Shown: in pieces, positions 58 through 33,315 of the stretch
Position numbering within the stretch: position 1 is the stretch's first letter
Layout: each line of letters opens with the position of its first letter
DNA from: a virus
Taxonomy: Duplodnaviria > Heunggongvirae > Uroviricota > Caudoviricetes
IMG/VR virus record: IMGVR_UViG_638341087_000014
Location: 1-34,255 of that record
Reading direction: 5' to 3' (one strand)
Length of the DNA: 34,255 nt
The notes under the pieces: generated by a model
What the model was told of the DNA's origin: nothing
The model's database searches: none
What the model saw: the letters and a program-made list of their open reading frames with translations, nothing else
Position numbers and translations under genes: made by a program

Positions 58-213
58 ATGAAGCAGCAAAAGGCGATGTTAATCGCCCTGATCGTCATCT
101 GTTTAACCGTCATAGTGACGGCACTGGTAACGAGGAAAGACCTCTGCGAGGTACGAATCCGAACCGGCCAGACGGAGGTTGCTGTCTTCGTGGGCTACGA
201 ATCTGAGAAGTAA
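58..213 (+). CDS. hokD: Hok/Gef-family type I toxin (HokD/RelF-like), 51 aa
   Basis: Translation MKQQKAMLIALIVICLTVIVTALVTRKDLCEVRIRTGQTEVAVFVGYESEK has the Hok length, single TM helix and conserved C-terminal motif; AAGGAGA precedes the ATG at 58. The track ORF 1-213 is an upstream in-frame extension. Confidence 0.8.
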   Translation: MKQQKAMLIALIVICLTVIVTALVTRKDLCEVRIRTGQTEVAVFVGYESEK

Positions 214-1999: not shown

Positions 2000-2359
2000 A
2001 TGCGTATAGAGTTTGTTTTGCCTTACCCGCCAACGGTGAACACCTACTGGCGACGTCGTGGCAGTACATATTTTGTATCAAAAGCCGGTGAGCGTTATCG
2101 CCGTGATGTGGCGCTCATTGTTCGCCAGCAGCGACTGAGATTAAACCTGTCCGGAAGGCTGGCAATAAAAATTACTGCAGAGCCACCGGATAAGCGCCGC
2201 CGTGACCTGGACAATATTCTGAAAGCACCACTGGATGCGTTGACGCATGCGGGGTTGCTTATCGACGACGAGCAGTTTGATGAAATCAATATTGTGCGCG
2301 GTCAGGTCGTTCCTGGTGGTCGGTTGGGCGTGAAGATTTACAAAATTGAAAGTGAGTGA
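2000..2359 (+). CDS. rusA: Holliday junction resolvase RusA
   Basis: 119 aa; RusA hallmarks (PPTVNTYWRRRG, DKRRRDLDNILKAPLDALTHAGLLIDDEQ); AAAGAGG before the ATG; sits immediately upstream of the Q-like gene as in lambdoid nin regions. Confidence 0.9.
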   Translation: MRIEFVLPYPPTVNTYWRRRGSTYFVSKAGERYRRDVALIVRQQRLRLNLSGRLAIKITAEPPDKRRRDLDNILKAPLDALTHAGLLIDDEQFDEINIVRGQVVPGGRLGVKIYKIESE

Positions 2360-2367
2360 GCGTAAAT

Positions 2368-2922
2368 ATGATATACCCGGAAATTACAGGCAAAAGCGGT
2401 GAGCATTTACGCCTGAAAACGCTGGAAAGTGTCTGGCTCCAGGGGAAACTGCGTATGTGGGGGCGTTGGTCGTATATTGGCGGCGGTAAGACGGGAAATA
2501 TGTTCAACCAATTACTGACCTCTAAAAAGCTGACAAAAACGGCAATTAACGAGGCGCTCCGGAGGATGAAAAAAGCGGGTCTGGACAAACCTGAACTTGA
2601 GGCTTTTTTGCGGGATATGATCAACGGCAATCAAAAAAGCTGGCTGGCACATTGTACCGATTCAGAGGCGTTAATAATCGACAGGGTTATTGGTGAAGCC
2701 CTGGCCGGTTATCCCGGGCTGCTCAATGTCCTGAGTCAGCGTTATGTGGGGCGGGGGATGACTAAGCGCAAAATGGCTGAACTGCTGAATGATGCACACC
2801 CGGAATGGAGTTTAAGAACCTGTGAAAGACGCATTGAGCATTGGCTAAAGGTGGCAGAATTTATTTTGTACAAACCAATGGTTATGGCTTTTTGTATAGA
2901 GAAAAAAGTTATTGCTTTTTGA
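2368..2922 (+). CDS. Putative late-gene antiterminator (Q-like), assigned mainly by position
   Basis: About 184 aa, directly after rusA and directly before a strong intrinsic terminator, the lambdoid Q/pR'/tR' arrangement. I do not confidently recognise the family; GTG at 2356 is an alternative start. Confidence 0.5.
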   Translation: MIYPEITGKSGEHLRLKTLESVWLQGKLRMWGRWSYIGGGKTGNMFNQLLTSKKLTKTAINEALRRMKKAGLDKPELEAFLRDMINGNQKSWLAHCTDSEALIIDRVIGEALAGYPGLLNVLSQRYVGRGMTKRKMAELLNDAHPEWSLRTCERRIEHWLKVAEFILYKPMVMAFCIEKKVIAF

Positions 2923-3496: not shown

Positions 3497-4543
3497 ATGG
3501 CTAATACTGTAAAAATATCCAGTTGTGAGTTAATCAACGCTGATTGCCTGGAATTTATCCAGACTTTACCGGAAAACTCTGTCGATCTGATAGTCACAGA
3601 CCCGCCATACTTTAAAGTGAAGCCCGAGGGCTGGGATAACCAGTGGAAGGGCGACGATGATTACCTGAAATGGCTGGATCAGTGTCTGGCGCAATTCTGG
3701 CGGGTACTGAAACCTGCCGGAAGTCTCTACCTGTTCTGTGGTCATCGCCTGGCATCTGATACCGAAATCATGATGCGTGAGCGCTTTAATGTGCTGAACC
3801 ACATTATCTGGGCGAAGCCGTCCGGACGCTGGAACGGATGCAACAAGGAAAGCCTGCGGGCGTATTTCCCGGCAACAGAGCGCATTCTGTTTGCTGAACA
3901 TTATCAGGGGCCCTACCAGCCCAAAAATGACGGCTATGTGGCACAGGGGCGCAAGCTTAAACAGCACGTCATGGCCCCGCTGATTTCTTACTTTCGTGAT
4001 GCGCGTGAATCACTGGGAATAACGTCAAAACAGATAGCGGAAGCCACCGGAAAGAAAAATATGGCTTCGCACTGGTTTGGTGCCAGTCAGTGGCAGTTAC
4101 CGAACGAAGCTGATTACAGAAAACTGCAGGCATTGTTTGCGCGTGTTACAGCAGAAAAGCATCAGCGCGGGGAACTGGAAAAGCCACACCACCAGCTGGT
4201 CAGCGCATACAGTGAACTGAACCGTCAATACGCCAGCCTGCTGGAAGAGTACAAATCTTTGCGGCGTTATTTTTCCGTATCAGCTGCCGTTCCGTATACG
4301 GATGTCTGGACGCACAGGCCTGTGCAGTATTATCCGGGCAAACATCCCTGTGAAAAACCGGCGGATATGTTGCGGCAGATAATTGAGGCCAGCAGTCGCC
4401 CCGGTGATTTGGTTGCTGATTTTTTTATGGGGTCAGGTTCCACAATAAAGGCAGCATTGTCACTGGAGCGTCGGGCTATTGGTGTGGAACTGGATGAAGG
4501 GCGATTTAATCAGACTGTAACTGAAATAAAAAATATCTGTTAA
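3497..4543 (+). CDS. DNA methyltransferase, beta-class N6-adenine/N4-cytosine type (orphan, no restriction partner in window)
   Basis: 348 aa; N-terminal DPPY motif (LIVTDPPYF) and C-terminal FxGxG AdoMet motif (DFFMGSGST): motif IV before motif I. Confidence 0.85.
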   Translation: MANTVKISSCELINADCLEFIQTLPENSVDLIVTDPPYFKVKPEGWDNQWKGDDDYLKWLDQCLAQFWRVLKPAGSLYLFCGHRLASDTEIMMRERFNVLNHIIWAKPSGRWNGCNKESLRAYFPATERILFAEHYQGPYQPKNDGYVAQGRKLKQHVMAPLISYFRDARESLGITSKQIAEATGKKNMASHWFGASQWQLPNEADYRKLQALFARVTAEKHQRGELEKPHHQLVSAYSELNRQYASLLEEYKSLRRYFSVSAAVPYTDVWTHRPVQYYPGKHPCEKPADMLRQIIEASSRPGDLVADFFMGSGSTIKAALSLERRAIGVELDEGRFNQTVTEIKNIC

Positions 4544-4623
4544 TTGTGCATGGTGTTATTTCTGATAATTCCGGAATAATAAAAATATATATGTATATTT
4601 ACAATTGCTGACGAGCATTTTTA

Positions 4624-4651
4624 TTGAAAGCGTCCGGGTTATTCGTATTAT
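4624..4651 (+). promoter_or_regulatory. Candidate sigma70 promoter for the tRNA cluster
   Basis: TTGAAA (4624-4629), 16-bp spacer, TATTAT (4646-4651), about 30 bp upstream of the first tRNA. Confidence 0.3.
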
Positions 4652-4683
4652 TGTGCCGCGTCAGAGCAATGATGCAATGGACA

Positions 4684-4760
4684 GGCCCTTTAGCTCAGTT
4701 GGTCAGAGCGAGCGACTCATAATCGCCAGGTCGCTGGTTCAAGTCCAGCAAGGGCCACCA
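4684..4760 (+). tRNA. tRNA with CAU anticodon, ileX-like (tRNA-Ile2, lysidine type), often auto-annotated as tRNA-Met
   Basis: 77 nt cloverleaf folded by hand: acceptor GGCCCTT/AAGGGCC, T-arm GCTGG-TTCAAGT-CCAGC, anticodon loop CTCATAA, 3' CCA encoded. Confidence 0.8.
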
Positions 4761-4761
4761 G

Positions 4762-4838
4762 CCGCCACTAGCTCATCCGGATAGAGCATCAACCTTCTAA
4801 GTTGATGGTGCGAGGTTCGAGTCCTCGGTGGCGGGCCA
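4762..4838 (+). tRNA. tRNA-Arg (anticodon UCU)
   Basis: 77 nt: acceptor CCGCCAC/GTGGCGG, anticodon stem-loop TCAAC-CTTCTAA-GTTGA, T-arm CGAGG-TTCGAGT-CCTCG, CCA encoded. 5' end could shift by 1 nt. Confidence 0.8.
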
Positions 4839-4840
4839 GT

Positions 4841-4916
<76 letters not shown>

Positions 4917-4919
4917 TAT

Positions 4920-4994
<75 letters not shown>

Positions 4995-5246
4995 GAGCGA
5001 GATAGGTAGTTTTTTGGCACTGACACATTTTATGTAGGGCGTTTTTCCTGACTCCTTACCTCGCCCTGTACTGTAATGAGTGATATCGGTTGCAGTACCA
5101 GTGCTGTTTTTTACGCCACCGGAATGGTGCATTATTGGTAGAGATTTGCAATGTCTCTGGCAGGGGCCGGTGATGCATCATCCCGATGTTGTAAACATCG
5201 CTCAGATAACGTTGAAATCAATCAAACCCAGGAAATACATCTTTAA

Positions 5247-5270
5247 CCGCCGCACCAGGCGGTTTTTTTT
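5247..5270 (+). terminator. Intrinsic terminator downstream of the tRNA cluster
   Basis: CCGCC-GCACCA-GGCGG stem-loop followed by an 8-T run. Confidence 0.55.
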
Positions 5271-5646
5271 ATTCTTAATTCGAAGAAAAAGAAAACACGG
5301 ACATTGATAATGTCCGCGTGGCAATGCCATGTAAGTTAGCGATGAATATGGCGCAAAAAAAAGCGCGGCCGTCGGATTAACGCCGCGGGACAAAGTCCGT
5401 GAAGAATCATAAGCATCTGTCTCCTCCGGGAGACGAGTTGATATTACTAAGCTTTAAAAATGGTTTAAATCCTCAGATTAACCTTAATTTTCGGTAAGTC
5501 TTATTTCATTTCTTCGCGCCACGCCCGGCGCACATCAAAAAACCACAGAGCCTTTCAGGGGTGAGCTTACGGGATGGTCAGTGTGACTTTCTCTGTGGGC
5601 TGGTCACCCCCGGGCGCAGGCTCACCCACTAAAAGGAAAAGTCACG

Positions 5647-6072
5647 ATGTTTGGTATTTTCAAAAAGAAAACCCGCAAGGCCATTACCGAAGTGAAGAAG
5701 ATGGAGAACCGCGACGCAGTGGAGGCGACCGTCTGGGGCGCGTATTCCATTGCATATGCTGACGGCACCTGCGATGCGAAAGAAATCGCTGTGCTGGAGA
5801 AAACCATTGCAGCACTTCCTGCTTTTGCGCCGTTCTCGGGTGAGATTGCACAAATGAGTGCAAATATCCGCGCCCGTTATGAAGCGTCGCCGCGCTCTGC
5901 CAATGCTGAAGCCCTTCGCCAGCTGGCTGATGTTGCCGGTACTGATGATGCAGTTAATGTACTGTGCCTGTGTCTGGATATCGCAGACCAGGATGGCATT
6001 GGTCCGGATGAAGAAGCGCAGCTCAAGAAAATTGCTCAGGCGCTGCAGTTACCGCTGGAGCAGTACCTGTGA
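5647..6072 (+). CDS. TerB-like (tellurite-resistance TerB family) domain protein, 141 aa
   Basis: Pattern resembling TerB (two helical repeats with conserved AxxDG...EE/DEE, e.g. SIAYADGTCDAKEIAVLEK and LDIADQDGIGPDEEAQLKKIAQAL); AAAAGGAAAAG before ATG 5647. Family call from remembered pattern, not a search. Confidence 0.6.
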   Translation: MFGIFKKKTRKAITEVKKMENRDAVEATVWGAYSIAYADGTCDAKEIAVLEKTIAALPAFAPFSGEIAQMSANIRARYEASPRSANAEALRQLADVAGTDDAVNVLCLCLDIADQDGIGPDEEAQLKKIAQALQLPLEQYL

Positions 6073-6221
6073 AAAGTGCGCGCCTTGTGCTGGCTGCCAT
6101 CCTGCTGTTTCTGGTAGTGGCGGTGGATTTCACCGGACGGCTGATGTCGGTGCTGGCAGATGGTGTGCTGGTGGCGATGGCGCTGGTCGTGCTCCGGCCT
6201 TTACTGCGTAAATCTGAATAA
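6069..6221 (+). CDS. Candidate small membrane protein (50 aa, two hydrophobic segments), start overlapping the TerB-like stop (GTGA)
   Basis: Translation from GTG 6069: MKSARLVLAAILLFLVVAVDFTGRLMSVLADGVLVAMALVVLRPLLRKSE; below the 60-aa cut-off of the ORF track; ends just before a hairpin and terminator. Confidence 0.3.
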   Translation: MKSARLVLAAILLFLVVAVDFTGRLMSVLADGVLVAMALVVLRPLLRKSE

Positions 6222-6269
6222 CACCACACAAAAGGCATCTGCGGGTGCCTTTAACGGGGTGTTTTTTAC

Positions 6270-6296
6270 GGGCCGCTGGTGGCCCTTTTTTATTTA
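6270..6296 (+). terminator. Intrinsic terminator immediately upstream of the lysis genes
   Basis: GGGCC-GCTGGT-GGCCC stem-loop followed by TTTTTTTATTT; the holin ribosome-binding site follows directly. Confidence 0.6.
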
Positions 6297-6310
6297 CAGG
6301 AGAAAAAAGT

Positions 6311-6703
6311 ATGTCTGAACCCTTATCCGGTTCCGGCACGGCTGCGGCGCTCGGTGGGGCGACGGTGTACGGGCTGTTTACCGGAACGGATTTCGGGATT
6401 GTGTTTGGTGCGTTCGCCGGGGCGTTATTTGTGGCAACGATGCCGCAGGCGCTTTCAGCCTGGCGTGTGGCGGCGCATTTTCTGGTGTCGTTCATTATCG
6501 GCGTGCTGGGCGCAGAGGTTCTGGCATCCTGGCTGGTAAAGCATACAGAGTTTGACGGTGCACCTGTCGACGCATTGTGTGCAGTACTGGTGTCAGTGGT
6601 GTCGGTGAAGATTCTCTCGTTCATCCACCAGCAGGATATTGCATCGCTGGTGTCCGGCCTGTTCTCCCGCCTGCGGGGTGGAGGAGGCGGCAATGTTAAG
6701 TAA
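6311..6703 (+). CDS. Putative holin (three predicted TM segments)
   Basis: 130 aa, AGGAGA before ATG 6311, three hydrophobic helices, first gene of a cassette ending in an endolysin. Confidence 0.55.
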   Translation: MSEPLSGSGTAAALGGATVYGLFTGTDFGIVFGAFAGALFVATMPQALSAWRVAAHFLVSFIIGVLGAEVLASWLVKHTEFDGAPVDALCAVLVSVVSVKILSFIHQQDIASLVSGLFSRLRGGGGGNVK

Positions 6704-6968
6704 CCTTCCCGGATTACTGAATGTGGCGTTATGCACGGTTATCGTGCTGACGCTCTTTTTTTATCGTCGCCGTGATTCCAGGCATAAACCGCTGATGTCA
6801 TGGCTGGCCTGGTTGCTGATGCTGCTGTATGCCTTTGCGCCCCTCAGCTATCTGTGTGGTCGCCCGTTAGCAACGGGCTGGCTGGAAGTGTTTTTTAATC
6901 TGTTGTTCTGCGTGCTGGTAATACGCGCACGCGGGAACGTCGCAAGAATCTTTCCATTGTTGAGGTGA
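6693..6968 (+). CDS. Putative second holin / holin-associated membrane protein
   Basis: 91 aa, three hydrophobic segments, GGAGGAGG before ATG 6693, overlaps the previous gene by 11 nt, directly upstream of the endolysin. Confidence 0.45.
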   Translation: MLSNLPGLLNVALCTVIVLTLFFYRRRDSRHKPLMSWLAWLLMLLYAFAPLSYLCGRPLATGWLEVFFNLLFCVLVIRARGNVARIFPLLR

Positions 6969-6970
6969 AT

Positions 6971-7348
6971 ATGTCGGGTAAATTCAGATTTAGTCGTCGC
7001 AGTGAAAAAAATCTGGAGGGCGTTAAACCACAGCTGGTTGCTGTCGTTCGCCGTGCGCTGGAGCTGACGGAGGTTGATTTCGGTATTACGGAAGGGCTGC
7101 GCACGAAAGAACGCCAGAAACAGCTGGTCGCGGAAGGGAAAAGCCAGACCATGAACAGCCGCCACCTGACCGGTGATGCGGTGGATGTTGTTGCCTGGGT
7201 TGGCAGCCAGGTGTCATGGGACTGGCCTCTGTACGAGAAAATCGCGCAGGCATTTAAGCAGGCTGCCGCAGAGCTGGGAACCGCCATCGAATGGGGCGGG
7301 GACTGGAAAACACTGAAAGACGGGCCTCACTTTCAGTTGAAACGCTGA
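6971..7348 (+). CDS. Endolysin, peptidase M15 family (L-alanyl-D-glutamate peptidase type)
   Basis: 125 aa; zinc-peptidase motifs SRHLTGDAVD and GGDWKTLKDGPHFQ; GAGGTG before ATG 6971. Confidence 0.8.
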   Translation: MSGKFRFSRRSEKNLEGVKPQLVAVVRRALELTEVDFGITEGLRTKERQKQLVAEGKSQTMNSRHLTGDAVDVVAWVGSQVSWDWPLYEKIAQAFKQAAAELGTAIEWGGDWKTLKDGPHFQLKR

Positions 7349-7362
7349 TAACCAGGTGGGTT

Positions 7363-7545
7363 ATGAGCAGAAAACACTGGACACACAGAATGCCGCGAAC
7401 GGCGGCGAAATGGGCGCTGGTAGCGATACTGGTGCCTTTTTTATTGGTGGGATGCGTCAGCCTGGATAAGGCGCGCCTGTTTTTTGACGCTGCTTCTCAG
7501 GCCTGCCAGTTGATTGATGGCATCCGGCAGTGTACGCAGAACTGA
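7363..7545 (+). CDS. Small lipoprotein, possible o-spanin (Rz1-like)
   Basis: 60 aa; signal peptide with lipobox LLVGC, short mature part; sits at the end of the lysis cassette. No partner i-spanin identified. Confidence 0.4.
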   Translation: MSRKHWTHRMPRTAAKWALVAILVPFLLVGCVSLDKARLFFDAASQACQLIDGIRQCTQN

Positions 7546-7716
7546 TCGCAGGTAAGAGCAGAATATTTTGCTGAAAAATGAGGGGTGCGTCAGCGCACGG
7601 AAAGCATGAAATTCTGCGTTTGTGGTTATTCAATAAAATAAATTCTTTCTATCGCCGCGAATACTCAAATGTTGATCAGTGCCCGGTGCGGCGACAGGCT
7701 TTGATATCAGGAGACG

Positions 7717-8115
7717 ATGATGGAAAAAACAGAAAACAAACCGATTGCAATTGGTGCTGATGCTGCTCCGTTTAAGTTTGAGTTGTCTCAACTGGTGGAG
7801 ATGCGCATCAGTGATGAATGGGGTGAGGTTAAAGCCCGCGCGCAGTATGCGGATGGCGAAAACCAGTACTTGATCCACTACAAGGCAGCTGACGGTCGCG
7901 CCACGACGGAGTGGTTTGGTGAGTCAATGCTGGAAGCAACAGAAGATGATCGTCATCCAGGTTGTCCGGTATTTGCCGGTATGAAATTACCGGAAGGCGC
8001 AGTGGTTGAGCTGCAGCCGGGTGAGATGTTCGTAATGACAGACATCATTGATGGTAAACCGCAGTATTCGCGTATTGAAATGAATGATAAGAGTGCTCGC
8101 CTGATTCGTGAGTAA
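7717..8115 (+). CDS. Hypothetical protein (132 aa), family not recognised
   Basis: Clean ORF with CAGGAGACG before tandem ATGs (7717/7720); no TM or signal peptide; between the lysis cassette and cos. Confidence 0.6.
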   Translation: MMEKTENKPIAIGADAAPFKFELSQLVEMRISDEWGEVKARAQYADGENQYLIHYKAADGRATTEWFGESMLEATEDDRHPGCPVFAGMKLPEGAVVELQPGEMFVMTDIIDGKPQYSRIEMNDKSARLIRE

Positions 8116-8122
8116 CAGGCAT

Positions 8123-8160
8123 TACAGCAGTCCTTCACTCTAAGGGGCTGCTGTAATGTG
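8123..8160 (+). other. Stable hairpin (11-bp perfect stem) just after the 7717-8115 stop
   Basis: CATTACAGCAG ... CTGCTGTAATG inverted repeat; no U-tract on either strand. Confidence 0.4.
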
Positions 8161-8482
8161 AGAAATAAAAAACCGGTCACAGGGAGCAGCTACACAGAAC
8201 CGGCCGGCGAAGACCGCCAATACCACTCATGCATTGATGCAACATACTAATGACAATAGCCGCTATTGATGTAAATGCAACGTTATGCATCAACGAAAAT
8301 AAAAAACCGGCAGGGGAAATCCATTGAAGATTTGCCGGTGGCAAAAGAGGGCCATGTTTTTAACCTTAGTCGCAGAGTTACGGAGTGCAACTACGAATGC
8401 TGCCGGTATATGGCTGAATGGCGTTTCAATGATGTACGTCATCTTATCTGTAAATGTTAATGATAAACGCTCCCATTTGTGC

Positions 8483-8676: not shown

Positions 8677-8699
8677 TGTATTTGATAGAGAAATGTATT

Positions 8700-9248
8700 G
8701 TGAAAGTTAACAAAAAGAAACTTGCCGAAATTTTCAACGTGGATCCGCGAACGATTGAACGCTGGCAGTCTCAGGGGCTATCTTGCGTCTCCGGAGGTAG
8801 CAAGGGTGTTGAATCTGTGTTTGATACCGCGATGGCAATTCAGTGGTACGCGCAGAGAGAAACTGATATCGAAAACGAAAAGCTCCGCAAAGAACTGGAA
8901 GATTTGCGTGCGGCTGCAGAATCAGATTTACAACCCGGCACCATTGACTATGAACGCTACCGGCTCACCAAAGCACAGGCTGACGCACAGGAGCTGAAAA
9001 ATGCCCGTGAAGAAGGGCTGGTGCTGGAAACGGAATTGTTTACCTTCATTCTGCAACGTGTGGCACAGGAGATTTCGGGGATACTTGTACGTGTGCCGCT
9101 GACATTACAGCGTAAATATCCGGATATTTCACCGTCACACCTTGATGTGGTGAAAACTGAAATCGCGAAAGCCTCCAATGTTGCAGCTAAAGCCGGTGAA
9201 AACGTGGGCAGGTGGATTGATGATTTCAGACGCACAGAAGGCAGCTAA
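8700..9248 (+). CDS. Terminase small subunit (lambda Nu1-like)
   Basis: Strong similarity to lambda Nu1 as I recall it ([59 protein letters not shown]). GTG 8700 chosen by alignment to the lambda N-terminus; track ORF starts at TTG 8682. Confidence 0.9.
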
Positions 9249-11136
9249 TGCAGCCGGTGCGATAGCTACAGGGCTTTTATCTCTCAATATTCCGGTTCCA
9301 CTGACGACGGTTCAGTGGGCTGATCAACATTATTATCTACCGAAAGAATCTTCATACACTCCCGGACAATGGGAAACCCTGCCGTTTCAGGTTGCCATTA
9401 TGAACAGCATGGGAAATGACCGGATCCGCACCGTTAATCTGATTAAATCGGCGCGCGTTGGTTACACCAAAATGCTGTTGGGGGTGGAGGCTTATTTTAT
9501 TGAGCATAAATCCCGTAACAGTCTGCTTTTTCAGCCAACAGATTCTGCGGCAGAAGATTTCATGAAATCTCATGTTGAGCCAACGATCAGGGATGTCCCT
9601 GCATTGCTGGAGCTGGCTCCATGGTTCGGAAGAAAGCACCGCGATAATACACTCACCCTGAAGCGTTTTTCCTCCGGTGTGGGTTTCTGGTGCCTGGGTG
9701 GTGCCGCTGCTAAAAACTACCGTGAAAAATCTGTGGATGTGGTCTGCTATGACGAACTCTCCTCGTTTGAACCGGATGTGGAAAAAGAAGGTTCGCCGAC
9801 GCTGCTTGGTGATAAACGTATCGAAGGTTCGGTATGGCCTAAATCCATACGCGGCTCAACGCCAAAAATCAAAGGTTCCTGTCAGATTGAGAAAGCCGCG
9901 AATGAATCTGCGCATTTCATGCGGTTTTATGTCCCTTGCCCTCATTGCGGGGAGGCCCAGTATCTGAAGTTTGGTGATGATGCGACGCCGTTTGGCCTGA
10001 AATGGGAGAAGGGTAAACCGGAAACGGTGTATTACCTGTGTGAACATAATGGCTGTGTGATCCGGCAGTCGGAACTCGACCAGACCGACGGACGCTGGAT
10101 TTGTGACAATACCGGGATGTGGACGCGCGACGGCCTGGCATTTTACAGCGCCGGTGATGAGGAGATGCCGCCACCGCGCTCCGTCACTTTCCACATCTGG
10201 ACGGCGTACAGTCCGTTCACCACCTGGGTACAGATTGTTTATGACTGGCTGGATGCGCTGAAGGATCCGAACGGCGTCAAGACGTTTATTAACACCACGC
10301 TCGGGGAACCCTATGAAGAGGCTGTGGCGGAAAAACTGAGCTTTGAGTTGTTGCTGGAAAAAGTCTGTCACTATGGTGCGCAGGTTCCCTTGCGGGTGGT
10401 TTACCTGACTGCCGGGATCGACTCCCAGAAAGATCGCTATGAAATTTATGTGTGGGGCTGGGCTCCCGGCGAAGAAGCCTTTCTGATTGATAAGCAAATT
10501 ATCATGGGGCGACCGGAAGACGAGGACACCCTTAAACGTGTTGATACGGTGATCCGGAAAAAATATCGTCATGCTGACGGTACTGAAATTTCCATTTCCC
10601 GTGTCTGCTGGGATACCGGTGGTATCGACCAGGACATTGTGTATCAACGTTCCAGGAAACACGGCACTTTTTTTGTGCTTCCCATAAAAGGGGCATCGGT
10701 GTACGGCAAGCCGGTGATCACCATGCCCAAAAAGCGCAACCAGCGTGGTGTGTTTTTGTGTGAGGTGGGCTCCGATACCGTCAAGGAAATGCTGTACGCC
10801 CGTTTTGCCCTGCCGGTGGTATCTGCCAGTGAAGCCGCCCCGTACACCTTCCGTTTTCCGGATAACCCCGACATTTTTTCGGAAGAAGAGGCGCGTCAGA
10901 TCGTGGCGGAAGAGCTGGTGGAGAAGGTGGTTAATGGCAGGGTGAAACTGCTGTGGGATAAAAAAGGGCGACGCAACGAAGCCCTCGACTGCCTGGTATA
11001 TGCCTATGCTGCCCTGCGTATTTCAGTTCAGCGGTGGCAGCTGGATCTTGAAGCACTGGCCCGTGCCAGAAGAGATGAGCAGGACGACGATGAGATGAGT
11101 CTGGAAGAAATCGCGGCTGCGCTGAGTGGAGGATAA
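9220..11136 (+). CDS. Terminase large subunit (lambda gpA-like)
   Basis: Near-colinear with lambda gpA ([56 protein letters not shown]). ATG 9220 (GGTGG upstream) fits the lambda N-terminal length better than ATG 9178. Confidence 0.95.
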
Positions 11137-19968: not shown

Positions 19969-20551
19969 CGATATCAGGAGCATACTGCCGGTCAGTGCCA
20001 GCCGGGCAGAGCGGGTGGTGGACTGTGTCGCCGGAGATATGCTGTCAGACATAGCGGTCTGCCTGATCCGCTATGTGAAAAATCCCGATTTATGTCCTGC
20101 TGAATTGCTGCCATGGCTGGCTTGGGAAATGGCGGTGGATACCTGGAATGAACACTGGACGGAGACGGAAAAAAGGTCTGCGATAAAACGTGCTGCTTAC
20201 ATCCACCGCCACAGAGGGACTAAAGCGGCGCTGATGGCATCGCTGGCTGACAGTCCCTTCCGGTCGCAGATTGTTGAGTGGTATGAGCAGACCCCACCCG
20301 GGGAGCCGTATACCTTTCGTCTGAACGTGGAGCAGAAGGATTTACCGGTGCTGATGAATGATCATCAGGATCTGAAGCATGCGGTGCTCCGTGCCAAAAA
20401 TCTGCGCAGCTGGTTCAGTATTCACGTTTACGGGAACAGCACAGGGCGTGGATTTGGTTACGGCTATGTGATGGCGACAGAAAAAATCAGAAGTACCGGT
20501 GTGACAACAAAGACAGTGCCCACAGGCGGGCAGAGTGAGGCAGGTGTATGA
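19961..20551 (+). CDS. Tail/baseplate protein I (P2 gpI-like)
   Basis: 196 aa in the position and with the overall pattern of P2 gpI; start overlaps the J-like stop. Confidence 0.8.
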   Translation: MNDDIRSILPVSASRAERVVDCVAGDMLSDIAVCLIRYVKNPDLCPAELLPWLAWEMAVDTWNEHWTETEKRSAIKRAAYIHRHRGTKAALMASLADSPFRSQIVEWYEQTPPGEPYTFRLNVEQKDLPVLMNDHQDLKHAVLRAKNLRSWFSIHVYGNSTGRGFGYGYVMATEKIRSTGVTTKTVPTGGQSEAGV

Positions 20552-21933
20552 ATGGACTGATTCTGACAACGTCCGGCGCTGCAGAAATTGAAGCAGCATA
20601 TCAGAACGGGCAAATCGTGACCGTCCGGCATGTTCTGCTTGGTGACGGGGGCGGGCGGGCATTGCCATCCACGCCGGATGAAATGGCAGCAATGACATCG
20701 TTGTACGGCGAATTCGGGCAGGAACCCTTTTCCGACGGTGCGGTGGAGGAGGGCTTCATCAGCGGGGATATTGTGATTGACTGTAAATCATACCCCGGTA
20801 AAACCCTTCGTGAACTGGGGATGATCAGCGACAGAGGTACGCTTATCGCGTACGGACGTTATCCGGACACCTTTTTACCAGACCAGACGGACTCCGTTAT
20901 CAAGGAAGTTATTCTGACGCTGGTTCTTGGACTGACGCACGCACAAAACGTGGTGCTGGAAGTTGATCCGGACAGGGCCATTATTACTCAGGAAATCGGA
21001 GACAGACGCTATCTGCAACGAAAAAAGAATCTTTCGGATGTGGAAGACAAGGATGAGGCTGTTGAAAGCCTCGGATTAAAACCTACGGTGGACAAGGCAA
21101 AAAATGCCGTTCAGCGTGATGGTGACACCATGACCGGGGAACTGAAAATCCGTGGTGTTAATGCGCTGAGGATTTTCAACGAAGCCTTTGGTCTGATTTT
21201 TCGTCGTTCGGAAGAGTGCCTGCACCTTATCCCTACCAGTGAAGGTCAGGGCGAGAATGGCGATATTGGTCCACTTCGACCGTTCACTATTAATCTGCGG
21301 ACGGGTGAAATATCCATGTCGCATAAAGTGTCTGTTGGCGGCGGTTCTCAGGTCAATGGTGCGCTGGGTATCGGCGTTCAGAACGCGCTGGGCGGAAACT
21401 CAATTGCTTTCGGGGATAACGATACAGGTATAAAACAAAACGGTGACGGCATTCTGGATGTTTATGCGAATGGGCAGCATGTATTTCGTTTCCAGAATGG
21501 TGTGGCGATAGCGTTAAAAAATATTCAGGCCGGAAATGCTAAAAAATTCACGTTATCCAGCGCCAACAACTCCACGAAAAACGCAACGTTTAATTTATGG
21601 GGCAATTCATCCCGCCCTGTAGTTGCAGAGCTTGGTGATGATTCTGGCTGGCATTTTTACAGTCAAAGGAATACGGATAACAGCATAACGTTCGCTGTAA
21701 ACGGGCAGATGGTTCCATCAAACTACGGAAACTTTGATGCCCGCTATCAGACCAAAACAGGCGGTGTGCAGGATGTGCGTCTGGGAAGCGCCATTGGTAT
21801 TGGACGCGGGGGAAATGCGCCATCAGGTCACCTTATCAGCGGTCTTGACGGTGGTGAAAGTATGGACTGGGCCAATGCCCGCCCGGTGCAGGTTCTGATT
21901 AATGGGGTCTGGCGGAATGTAGCGAGTTTGTAA
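20548..21933 (+). CDS. Tail fibre protein (P2 gpH position; N-terminal tail-collar-type domain)
   Basis: 461 aa after the I-like gene; N-terminal domain typical of myovirus tail fibres, Gly/Asn-rich distal part; followed by an assembly chaperone gene. Confidence 0.75.
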   Translation: MNGLILTTSGAAEIEAAYQNGQIVTVRHVLLGDGGGRALPSTPDEMAAMTSLYGEFGQEPFSDGAVEEGFISGDIVIDCKSYPGKTLRELGMISDRGTLIAYGRYPDTFLPDQTDSVIKEVILTLVLGLTHAQNVVLEVDPDRAIITQEIGDRRYLQRKKNLSDVEDKDEAVESLGLKPTVDKAKNAVQRDGDTMTGELKIRGVNALRIFNEAFGLIFRRSEECLHLIPTSEGQGENGDIGPLRPFTINLRTGEISMSHKVSVGGGSQVNGALGIGVQNALGGNSIAFGDNDTGIKQNGDGILDVYANGQHVFRFQNGVAIALKNIQAGNAKKFTLSSANNSTKNATFNLWGNSSRPVVAELGDDSGWHFYSQRNTDNSITFAVNGQMVPSNYGNFDARYQTKTGGVQDVRLGSAIGIGRGGNAPSGHLISGLDGGESMDWANARPVQVLINGVWRNVASL

Positions 21934-32244: not shown

Positions 32245-32790
32245 TTACCACCAGCTATCAGCTTTACTCTCTCGTGCTTTTCCCTCACTTTGCAACAATT
32301 CTTTGGTACCAGTTGAAATATTACGCCGAGCATCCGCTTCTGATTGAATAACGTCAGTTTGTGCAGCCCGCTCCTTGAGTTCTTGGTCCAGAAAATCGTT
32401 TGCTCTATTTACCCTGGCCCTTTTAGCTTCGAGTTCGAGTTTTCGGTTTTCTAGCTCAAGTTGGCGTAATTGATCTTCATAATCTTGATCGCGTTTTTTA
32501 TCTGCCGCCATCTCCGCTTCGAGCTTAGCTTTACGCTCAAACTCAGCCGCTCGTCGTTGTTTTTCTTTTGCTGCTGCCATAGCCGCTGCTTTCTCTTTGC
32601 GAATCCTTTCCGCATTGGCACGTTGGCGCTCTTGTTCTTTACGTGCATCTTCAATACGTTTTTCTTCGGCTTTACCTTCATTTTCGGCTTGCGCAATAGC
32701 CGCTAATTGTTCCTGTAAAGAAGACGCGTTAACGTAAAAAGTGCTTAGGCACGGCAAAGCTAATAGTATATATAAAGCAAGACGTGTCAT
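32245..32790 (-). CDS. Secreted, highly charged coiled-coil protein (TolA-domain-II-like K/E/A/R-rich helix)
   Basis: 181 aa; N-terminal signal peptide (MTRLALYILLALPCLSTFYVNA), then a low-complexity charged helix; AT-rich codon usage unlike the phage structural genes. Confidence 0.6.
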   Translation of the reverse strand: MTRLALYILLALPCLSTFYVNASSLQEQLAAIAQAENEGKAEEKRIEDARKEQERQRANAERIRKEKAAAMAAAKEKQRRAAEFERKAKLEAEMAADKKRDQDYEDQLRQLELENRKLELEAKRARVNRANDFLDQELKERAAQTDVIQSEADARRNISTGTKELLQSEGKARESKADSWW

Positions 32791-32802
32791 CTGAAATGGC
32801 CA

Positions 32803-33315
32803 TTATTTATTATCAGGGCATGTTGCATTTGGTTGAATACGTGTTTCGTTTTCTTTAGTTGAAATCATGGCTGCTAATCCAGGCGCAAATTGGCAAGTTC
32901 TACCAACTTGAGTCGATGTATAAACTTTTGTACCTTCTTTGTATGTTAGAGAAACGCCTTCAACAATTGTTTTATCTTTGACTAATGAACCAGCGGCTGC
33001 ACCAAGTGCGGTTCCACCTACAGCCCCTGCGGTGGTTGCCAGTTTCGAACCACTTTTGGTGTTATGTCCAATTACTCCTCCAGCAACGGCACCAACTACA
33101 GCACCGAATGTTTGTGCTGCTTCTTTATTCTCTTTGTTGTCCACAGCAATTTTTGCAGGAAGAACCGAAATGATAGTTATCATTTTGGTTTCTTGTTTGG
33201 AATTAACCTGAGTGGTGTCATAAACATCTGCAGCAAGATGTTCTGCAGTAGACTGACACCCACTTAATACAAAGGCAGCTAATAAAGAAATGGTTGCTTT
33301 ATTTAATTTCAACAT
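32803..33315 (-). CDS. Outer-membrane lipoprotein, SlyB/PCP-like (glycine-zipper)
   Basis: 170 aa; lipobox LSGC; Gly-zipper GAVVGAVAGGVIGH...GAVGGTALGAAAG and overall SlyB-like pattern; AT-rich; 12 bp upstream of the coiled-coil gene on the same strand. Confidence 0.7.
   Translation of the reverse strand: MLKLNKATISLLAAFVLSGCQSTAEHLAADVYDTTQVNSKQETKMITIISVLPAKIAVDNKENKEAAQTFGAVVGAVAGGVIGHNTKSGSKLATTAGAVGGTALGAAAGSLVKDKTIVEGVSLTYKEGTKVYTSTQVGRTCQFAPGLAAMISTKENETRIQPNATCPDNK

Follow-up and report, generated by a model that had tools for sequence, protein, structure and literature searches.

A 60-residue lipoprotein without a recognisable Rz-like partner ends the phiP27-type lysis cassette of an Escherichia coli prophage

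The window analysed here, a stretch of 34,255 nucleotides (nt) from the IMG/VR virus record IMGVR_UViG_638341087_000014 (positions 1 to 34,255), is a lambdoid Escherichia coli prophage, and positions 6311-7545 hold its complete lysis cassette, which is of the phiP27 type. In this cassette two holins and an M15 endolysin are followed by a short lipoprotein, which on comparative evidence appears to occupy the slot filled by Rz/Rz1 in a sister cassette. The lipoprotein family as a whole seems to be without an Rz-like partner, and the inner-membrane partner published for phiP27 is probably a spurious antisense open reading frame (ORF). On balance, the lipoprotein seems to carry lysis through its outer-membrane step, or to stand in for the usual agent there, with no canonical Rz-like partner.

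The lysis cassette and its lipoprotein

The features of the cassette are as follows.

6311-6703 (+): holin 1, 130 residues; PF16931 Phage_holin_8 (E 3e-22), phrog_198 holin (E 5e-43); Shine-Dalgarno (SD) motif GGAG
6693-6968 (+): holin 2, or holin-like protein with three TM segments, 91 residues; PF05449 Phage_holin_3_7 (E 1e-22), phrog_217 holin (E 6e-39)
6971-7348 (+): endolysin, M15 zinc peptidase (VanY/T5-type), 125 residues; PF13539 Peptidase_M15_4 (E 3e-12), phrog_465 (E 4e-75)
7363-7545 (+): prolipoprotein, 60 residues; lipobox LVGC; phrog_7528 (E 1e-34), function unknown
7363-7452 (+): signal peptide of the prolipoprotein, codons 1-30; long invariant basic n-region M-RKHWTHR-PR, then h-region
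7453-7542 (+): mature lipopeptide, 30 residues, CVSLDKARLFFDAASQACQLIDGIRQCTQN; net charge 0, no Pro

The four genes, which an earlier note had read from the letters of this DNA, were recovered at 6311-7545 by ORF, Pfam and PHROGs analysis, and the two proteins that the note had described as membrane proteins both fall in holin families (PF16931, PF05449). Its count of three hydrophobic segments in each holds for holin 2, where all three are uncharged and are accompanied by an RRRDSRHK loop and a basic C-terminus; holin 1, also basic at its C-terminus, has three clear segments plus a weak, Gly/Ala-rich fourth at the N-terminus (Kyte-Doolittle scan, rather than a dedicated topology predictor). 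The two holin genes overlap by 11 nt. Both proteins thus combine a profile match, several transmembrane (TM) segments, a basic C-terminus and a position 5' of the endolysin, as is expected of holins, the Phage_holin_8 and Phage_holin_3_7 families being themselves 'putative' holin families in Pfam. The second of the two proteins may act as a holin, an antiholin or an accessory factor. The metallopeptidase assignment of the endolysin, also made in the note, agrees with PF13539, phrog_465 and the motif SxHxxGxAxD at S63-D72 plus His120, from which the zinc ligands H65, D72 and H120 were read. No signal and no signal-arrest-release segment were found in it, and from the family match and zinc ligands it is predicted to be a cytoplasmic M15 peptidase. 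An SD-like motif precedes each of the four genes.

The lipoprotein gene begins 14 nt past the endolysin stop, and its translation is MSRKHWTHRMPRTAAKWALVAILVPFLLVG followed, after the predicted cleavage before Cys31 (LVG/C31), by CVSLDKARLFFDAASQACQLIDGIRQCTQN, in agreement with the very short mature part that had been proposed. The n-region holds five K/R and the h-region is WALVAILVPFLLVG; no hydrophobic segment follows Cys31. The lipobox and the sorting call are rule-based: Val, not Asp, stands at position +2, from which Lol sorting to the inner leaflet of the outer membrane is predicted. This protein therefore has a signal peptidase II lipobox and predicted outer-membrane sorting, both expected of the lipoprotein subunit of a two-component spanin (o-spanin). 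In an alignment of 14 lipoprotein sequences (alignment A1) the lipobox Cys does not vary, nor do the residues around it, and they are retained in almost all alleles of the 88 loci surveyed below.

If helical, the mature lipopeptide would be strongly amphipathic, its hydrophobic moment over 18 residues reaching 0.55. Alignment A1 shows two more Cys conserved across the family, at mature positions 18 and 27; they are probably joined in a disulfide, either intramolecular or linking two chains. AlphaFold2 returned a single long helix at pLDDT 70, which is uninformative; for the phiP27 lipoprotein, 25 of the 30 residues were predicted to be helical (Kongari et al., 2018, supplementary file 3; PMC6139136).

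The lipoprotein is a real gene under purifying selection and not a chance ORF. Over 50 distinct alleles, the ratio of nonsynonymous to synonymous change (dN/dS) is 0.22 in the lipoprotein frame, whereas the two alternative frames give 0.98 and 1.9. In the lipoprotein frame, n-region, h-region and mature part have similar values. Within codons 1-16 (7363-7410), the n-region M-RKHWTHR-PR-AAKW is kept as strongly as the lipobox (dN/dS 0.23); such a long basic n-region is not needed by ordinary lipoprotein signals, and it may control when processing takes place or serve some separate function. A start at Met10, which would give a 51-residue form, was rejected: that position varies (M/V/T/Q) and has no SD motif, which together with the invariant n-region points to Met1 as the true start. 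Also rejected were an alternative-frame ORF of 37 residues at 7356-7469 and L32 of phiP27, which have no TM segment and lie in a frame whose dN/dS is about 1. Over the h-region codons, at 7412-7447 (+), lies a terminator-like hairpin (11 pairs) followed by TTTTTTATTGG, where synonymous divergence (pS) is 0.087, compared with 0.22-0.25 in the flanking codons. This low value could be due to chance, to codon constraint in the hydrophobic stretch, or to a signal at the RNA level.

Database searches placed the protein in a narrow family. No match was obtained in Pfam (E <= 0.1), NCBIfam or PADLOC, and a profile search of PDB sequences matched a designed repeat protein alone, which is spurious. A hidden Markov model search of 1.84 billion representative proteins gave 23 clusters with a lipoprotein match, all of them tiny proteins (44-79 residues) of the same design save for a handful of gene fusions and a single unrelated repeat protein, so that no link to a larger family emerged. 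Clustered at 90% identity, the family falls into about 144 groups, each of them from Enterobacterales (Escherichia, Salmonella, Citrobacter, Cronobacter, Yersinia), and a Lelliottia homologue was found in a genome scan.

Search for an inner-membrane partner

The earlier note had reported no recognisable inner-membrane spanin (i-spanin) of the Rz type, and the searches bear this out. No ORF with a TM segment was found in any frame of 7300-7720, and the lipoprotein gene, as had also been stated, is not embedded in another gene, no enclosing or overlapping Rz-like ORF having been found. Over 5600-8200, no TM-segment ORF is present besides the holins and the DUF3927 gene described below. The adjacent or overlapping cognate i-spanin that goes with an o-spanin is thus missing from the cassette and its flanks, and so is a periplasm-spanning length, the lipoprotein having 30 mature residues and no partner. 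The 132-residue gene that lies downstream (phrog_1935) was considered as a partner and rejected, as it has no TM segment and no signal.

These observations were extended to 88 loci with an intact lipoprotein, for which phage records and E. coli genomes were used alongside IMG/VR and GTDB; the scan of GTDB representative genomes yielded only four loci, one of them spurious, and the sample was supplied by IMG/VR instead. The region occurs in 326 of 5,426 complete E. coli genomes. In all 88 loci the lipoprotein is the last gene of a holin-endolysin cassette. The endolysin that precedes it belongs to the M15 family in about 65 loci and to GH108 in about 23, and the holins are the Phage_holin_8 and 3_7 pair or, in Lelliottia (L010), a holin of the lambda-S family. 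The gap between endolysin and lipoprotein is at most 20 nt in 49 loci, the window among them, and exactly 14 nt in 48 of these 49. In 38 of the 88 loci, 250-1100 bp are inserted at this junction; the inserts hold genes for proteins with a C-terminal transmembrane domain (TMD), namely sTM57/sTM60 (phrog_4493/1115) and sTM44 (phrog_4906), as well as a 93-residue gene, KilA-N/Bro-N genes and an ais-like phosphatase gene. The plus strand was scanned, over 3.5 kb on either side of the lipoprotein, for ORFs in which an N-terminal TM segment is followed by 50 or more residues, and none was found near any intact lipoprotein; the same scan recovered its controls, the Rz of locus GER2 and the i-spanin of L007.

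The published record differs on this point. In the spanin survey of Kongari et al., phiP27 is listed as a 'separated' two-component spanin with the lipoprotein as o-spanin (20706-20861, 51 residues, from the Met10 start) and with an i-spanin at 20348-20542 of 64 residues, of which 32 are periplasmic, without a coiled coil. The pair has 62 periplasmic residues, the shortest of 528 systems, and both members are family singletons (Kongari et al., 2018; PMC6139136). The 64-residue ORF (7303-7497, plus strand, in our phiP27 locus L001, NC_003356) has a TTG start and no family of its own, and is present in one of 91 loci. It lies antisense to a 90-residue minus-strand ORF (7287-7559), a member of phrog_36812 (E 5e-20) with a homologue of 46% identity in locus L060, and the segment of about 470 bp in which it sits is missing from the window. 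Being unconserved and antisense to a PHROG-family gene, the ORF was rejected as a partner, and the published phiP27 i-spanin is probably a mis-annotation. As far as sequence can tell, 'no i-spanin' describes the phiP27-type family better than the published phiP27 pairing does.

It could nevertheless be that the lipoprotein is the o-spanin of a genuine two-component spanin, whose i-spanin partner either has gone unrecognised or has been lost from the window; in the latter case the prophage would be spanin-defective. This explanation is considered improbable. Candidates for an unrecognised partner would be the small C-terminal-TMD proteins (sTM57/sTM60/sTM44 type), either of the two 'holins', or some protein of the host, and the listing of phiP27 as a separated two-component spanin speaks for a partner (Kongari et al., 2018; PMC6139136), as do the small TM genes that lie 1-4 nt 5' of the lipoprotein in 35-38 of the 88 loci and the two conserved periplasmic Cys, a feature of most o-spanins. 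However, the listed phiP27 partner is open to the objections given above, and the small TM genes are missing in 49 of the 88 loci, including the window and phiP27, where purifying selection is equal: dN/dS of the lipoprotein is 0.21 with nothing between endolysin and lipoprotein (25 alleles) and 0.24 with small TM genes. Moreover, the same small genes precede complete Rz/Rz1 as well, which argues that they are not Rz substitutes. Finally, 30 mature residues plus a short holin loop cannot span the periplasm.

The small C-terminal-TM proteins (57-67 residues, phrog_4493/1115) and the 44-residue TM protein (phrog_4906), which are absent from the window, recur in relatives just 5' of Rz/Rz1 or of the lipoprotein. 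They are found at the following positions.

L002, 4507-4680: small TM gene
L005, 3662-3844 and 3862-3996: small TM genes
L094, 3989-4207: small TM gene
L004, 2630-2779: small TM gene

By analogy with Lcc6 of Shewanella phage LambdaSo (bioRxiv 10.1101/2024.01.23.576932), to which they are comparable, these proteins may be lysis accessory factors.

Equivalence with the Rz/Rz1 slot

The clearest comparison is offered by E. coli A34 (L094), where the same holin-holin-M15 cassette is followed by an sTM60-like gene and then by Rz (PF03245, E 1e-38). The A34 Rz gene carries an embedded, proline-rich Rz1, and no lipoprotein is present in this locus. The sTM57/60 family precedes Rz in GER2 and A34, and precedes the lipoprotein in other loci. 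In eight loci bor lies 3' of the lipoprotein on the minus strand, just as in lambda bor follows Rz/Rz1. Furthermore, no Rz-like or Rz1-like ORF was found in any locus with an intact lipoprotein, both scans having recovered their positive controls, and two loci with canonical spanins keep only decayed lipoprotein copies: the copy in GER2 has three in-frame stops, and that in EC12/L007 is truncated and fused. Taken together, these arrangements suggest that the lipoprotein occupies the slot filled by Rz/Rz1 in the sister cassette.

Terminase modules of at least five unrelated types lie 3' of the lipoprotein, which indicates that the lipoprotein travels with the lysis module and argues against a receptor- or tail-linked role. 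Two loci have peculiarities of their own. In L093 (E. coli O139:H1 P15-25), at 3572-5630, the endolysin-lipoprotein junction has taken up a DUF1441 fragment and an ais-like phosphatase gene, and the 3' end of the M15 gene is duplicated, with an intact lipoprotein following the duplicate. In L003 (PP818812, 'Actinobacillus phage vB_Apl-pPE4'), the E. coli prophage lysis region is matched at 89% nt identity over a stretch that takes in TerB, the two holins, M15 and the lipoprotein, and the stated Actinobacillus host seems doubtful.

Comparison with known systems

The nearest relative is the Stx2e phage phiP27 (NC_003356; L28, L29, L30 and an unannotated lipoprotein), which shares 93% nt identity over 6200-7800 and has the same two holins and M15 endolysin, with a lipoprotein 80% identical to that of the window. 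It differs by the insert of about 470 bp between endolysin and lipoprotein that carries the minus-strand phrog_36812 gene and is absent from the window.

With lambda Rz/Rz1 the lipoprotein shares the last position in the cassette, a lipoprotein of outer-membrane type, a short mature part (40 residues in Rz1, 30 here), periplasmic Cys and, as the A34 locus illustrates, interchangeability in the same cassette backbone. Unlike Rz1, it has no Rz partner and is not embedded, contains no Pro (10 of 40 residues in Rz1), is predicted to be helical where Rz1 is unstructured, and is too short to bridge the periplasm. An hhalign comparison with canonical Rz1 gave a probability of 0.3%, that is, no similarity. 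On these sequence grounds, lacking an i-spanin and the required length, the lipoprotein should not be filed as a subunit of a two-component spanin. The single-gene u-spanins of the T1 gp11 type are similar in that an N-terminal lipobox protein is encoded within the lysis cassette; in contrast to them, the lipoprotein has only 30 mature residues, carries two Cys, whereas u-spanins have no periplasmic Cys, and has no C-terminal TMD, which shows that it is not a u-spanin.

The closest analogy for a lipopeptide that stands alone is found in the colicin lysis or bacteriocin release proteins (BRP; PF02402) and the entericidin type, which are very small lipoproteins that compromise the envelope. The mature part of such lipoproteins is about 28-33 residues long. 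Size and lipid anchor of the window protein agree with BRP, and leakage dependent on outer-membrane phospholipase A (OmpLA), as with BRP, may be considered by analogy. The lipoprotein differs in having no PF02402 match at E <= 0.1, a different sequence and extra Cys, and in being part of a phage late operon and not of a colicin operon. The 'disruptin' gp28 of phage phiKT reportedly is cationic, has no signal sequence and reaches the outer membrane once holin and endolysin have acted. It resembles the lipoprotein as a small amphipathic helix from a spanin-less phage that has been proposed to break the outer membrane (bioRxiv 10.1101/515445), whereas the lipoprotein is net neutral, predicted to be exported by Sec and Lol and lipid-anchored, and shows no homology to it.

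Proposed role and alternatives

In the proposed sequence of events, the Q-type antiterminator (2356-2922) would drive the late transcript that contains the cassette. The holin-family proteins would permeabilise the inner membrane, and the signal-less M15 peptidase would pass through the holin holes and cut the peptidoglycan. The prolipoprotein, made late, would leave the cytoplasm through Sec, acquire its lipid, undergo cleavage at Cys31 and be delivered by Lol to the outer membrane, into the inner leaflet, as the sequence rules predict. More speculatively, the lipopeptide might build up harmlessly in the outer membrane late in infection and weaken it once the murein is gone. Such weakening could be direct, by insertion or oligomerisation of an amphipathic helix, or indirect, through outer-membrane phospholipase A, as with colicin-release lipoproteins. 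Membrane fusion of the spanin type is unlikely, since a helix of 30 residues measures about 45 Å, too little to bridge the periplasm.

A further step would be to hold that the final lysis step in E. coli needs no more than this outer-membrane-anchored lipopeptide of 30 residues. It would then form a third class of disruptor beside spanins and disruptins, replacing Rz/Rz1 in widespread enterobacterial prophages, including Stx2e and Stx2k phages. This is put forward tentatively, as a possibility with somewhat less than an even chance.

Several points weigh against a role of the lipoprotein in breaching the outer membrane. The lipoprotein, whose role is predicted from sequence, has no homology to a spanin, a colicin lysis protein, an entericidin or a solved structure. 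About 13% of phages of Gram-negative hosts are without an identifiable spanin (Kongari et al., 2018; PMC6139136), and the cassette might simply be without an outer-membrane step. The inserts between endolysin and lipoprotein in 38 loci leave room for a partner that may exist in some lineages. In addition, modular recombination rather than functional redundancy could account for the mutual exclusion, for the swap in A34 (n=1) and for the decay of two copies (n=2), and no isolated plaque-forming phage with exactly the arrangement of the window was found in the phage collection.

An alternative is that the lipoprotein is a late accessory gene unrelated to lysis, in a cassette that is itself spanin-less; it might serve, for example, in receptor masking, so that progeny are not lost on debris, in superinfection exclusion or in envelope modification. 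This alternative is unlikely, though it carries real weight. The interval between endolysin and terminase is an insertion hot spot (KilA-N/Bro-N, ais-like phosphatase, bor), and the lack of homology to any lysis protein would fit an accessory gene; phages without a spanin are on record, 31 of them with an orphan lipoprotein to which no role has been assigned. Against this, the lipoprotein gene has no promoter or terminator of its own, shares the strand of the late genes and follows in tight coupling whichever gene precedes it, in contrast to bor and the Upf50.5 pair described below, which are on the opposite strand. It moves with the lysis module across the different structural modules noted above, no intact copy was seen beside Rz/Rz1, and no PADLOC match was obtained. 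The receptor-blocking lipoproteins Cor and Llp sit with tail genes, unlike the lysis-linked lipoprotein here. The reading that the lipoprotein performs the outer-membrane step, or substitutes for it, is retained as the most likely one.

Prophage setting and late transcript

The neighbouring features of the window are as follows.

58-213 (+): Hok/Gef-family toxin ORF (PF01848), at the left end (Pfam scan)
2000-2359: RusA (Pfam)
2356-2922 (+): Q-type late antiterminator; PF06576 DUF1133 (E 1e-104), PF06530 Phage_antitermQ
3497-4543: DNA methylase (Pfam)
4684-4994 (+): four tRNA genes, 3' of Q (Met-CAT, Arg-TCT, Thr-TGT, Gly-TCC)
5647-6072 (+): TerB-like gene, between the tRNA cluster and the lysis genes
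6069-6221 (+): DUF3927/TciB-like gene, between the tRNA cluster and the lysis genes
6270-6295 (+): terminator-like GC hairpin and T-run, just 5' of the ribosome-binding site of holin 1
7717-8115 (+): 132-residue gene, phrog_1935; no TM segment, no signal
8682-9248: Nu1 (Pfam)
9178-11136: gpA terminase (Pfam)

The head genes have about 77% nt identity to phage 21. The interval from the tRNA genes to Nu1 holds two inserted accessory genes, the TerB-like and DUF3927 genes, and the four cassette genes, where lambda has S-R-Rz/Rz1. No sigma-70-like promoter was found in 6100-8300; with an SD motif for each gene and no internal promoter, the block reads as one stretch of Q-dependent late transcript. 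The hairpin at 6270-6295 is probably a terminator that is read through under Q antitermination, and its position argues against the longer start, GTG-6245, that is used for L28 of phiP27. The TerB-like and DUF3927 pair (5647-6221) fills the slot of stx2e in phiP27, and the phrog_1935 gene lies 3' of the lipoprotein and 5' of the terminase genes in about half of the related loci.

A second lipoprotein gene, at the far end of the prophage, was identified with a looser lipobox scan and direct translation.

32803-33315 (-): glycine-zipper/TraT-like lipoprotein, cleavage LSG/C20
32245-32790 (-): DUF5384 protein, with a signal-like N-terminus and a long charged helix

That this remote pair (32245-33315) should be the true spanin is very hard to credit. 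The two genes do have a superficial spanin look, a lipoprotein standing beside a protein whose N-terminal hydrophobic segment is accompanied by a charged helix or coiled coil of about 155 residues. However, they lie on the opposite strand at the prophage end, are not found in phiP27, Stx2k or pPE4, and correspond to Upf50.5/Upf50.0 of P7 and P1-like phages, where they stand outside the late operons and both carry annotated cleavable signal peptides. In TL-2011b the pair directly follows a complete holin-endolysin-Rz cassette. The exclusion from the late operon in P7, the TL-2011b context and the patchy presence led to its rejection as the spanin of the cassette, and from its sequence relationships it is best described as an accessory gene pair at the prophage end, unrelated to phage growth. 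The label 'DNA methyltransferase' that PHROGs and RefSeq attach to the remote lipoprotein looks wrong.

Implications

A class of phages with an orphan lipoprotein and no i-spanin was already known from 31 genomes, and the phiP27 protein itself had been listed (Kongari et al., 2018; PMC6139136). The present analysis adds that the published partner is probably not real, that the orphan state appears to be the rule over 88 loci, and that Rz/Rz1 seems to be an alternative occupant of the slot held by the lipoprotein. The phiP27-type cassette offers a tractable case for the acknowledged question of how the outer membrane is breached by phages that lack a recognisable spanin, with an E. coli host, four genes, a sister cassette carrying Rz/Rz1 and an inducible reference phage, phiP27. 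Should the lipopeptide not work alone, the spanin annotation of phiP27 would still need correction. If it does work alone, it would constitute a minimal outer-membrane-breaking module, with a bearing on phage biology, on the release of Shiga toxin from Stx2e and Stx2k lysogens, and on engineered lysis systems.

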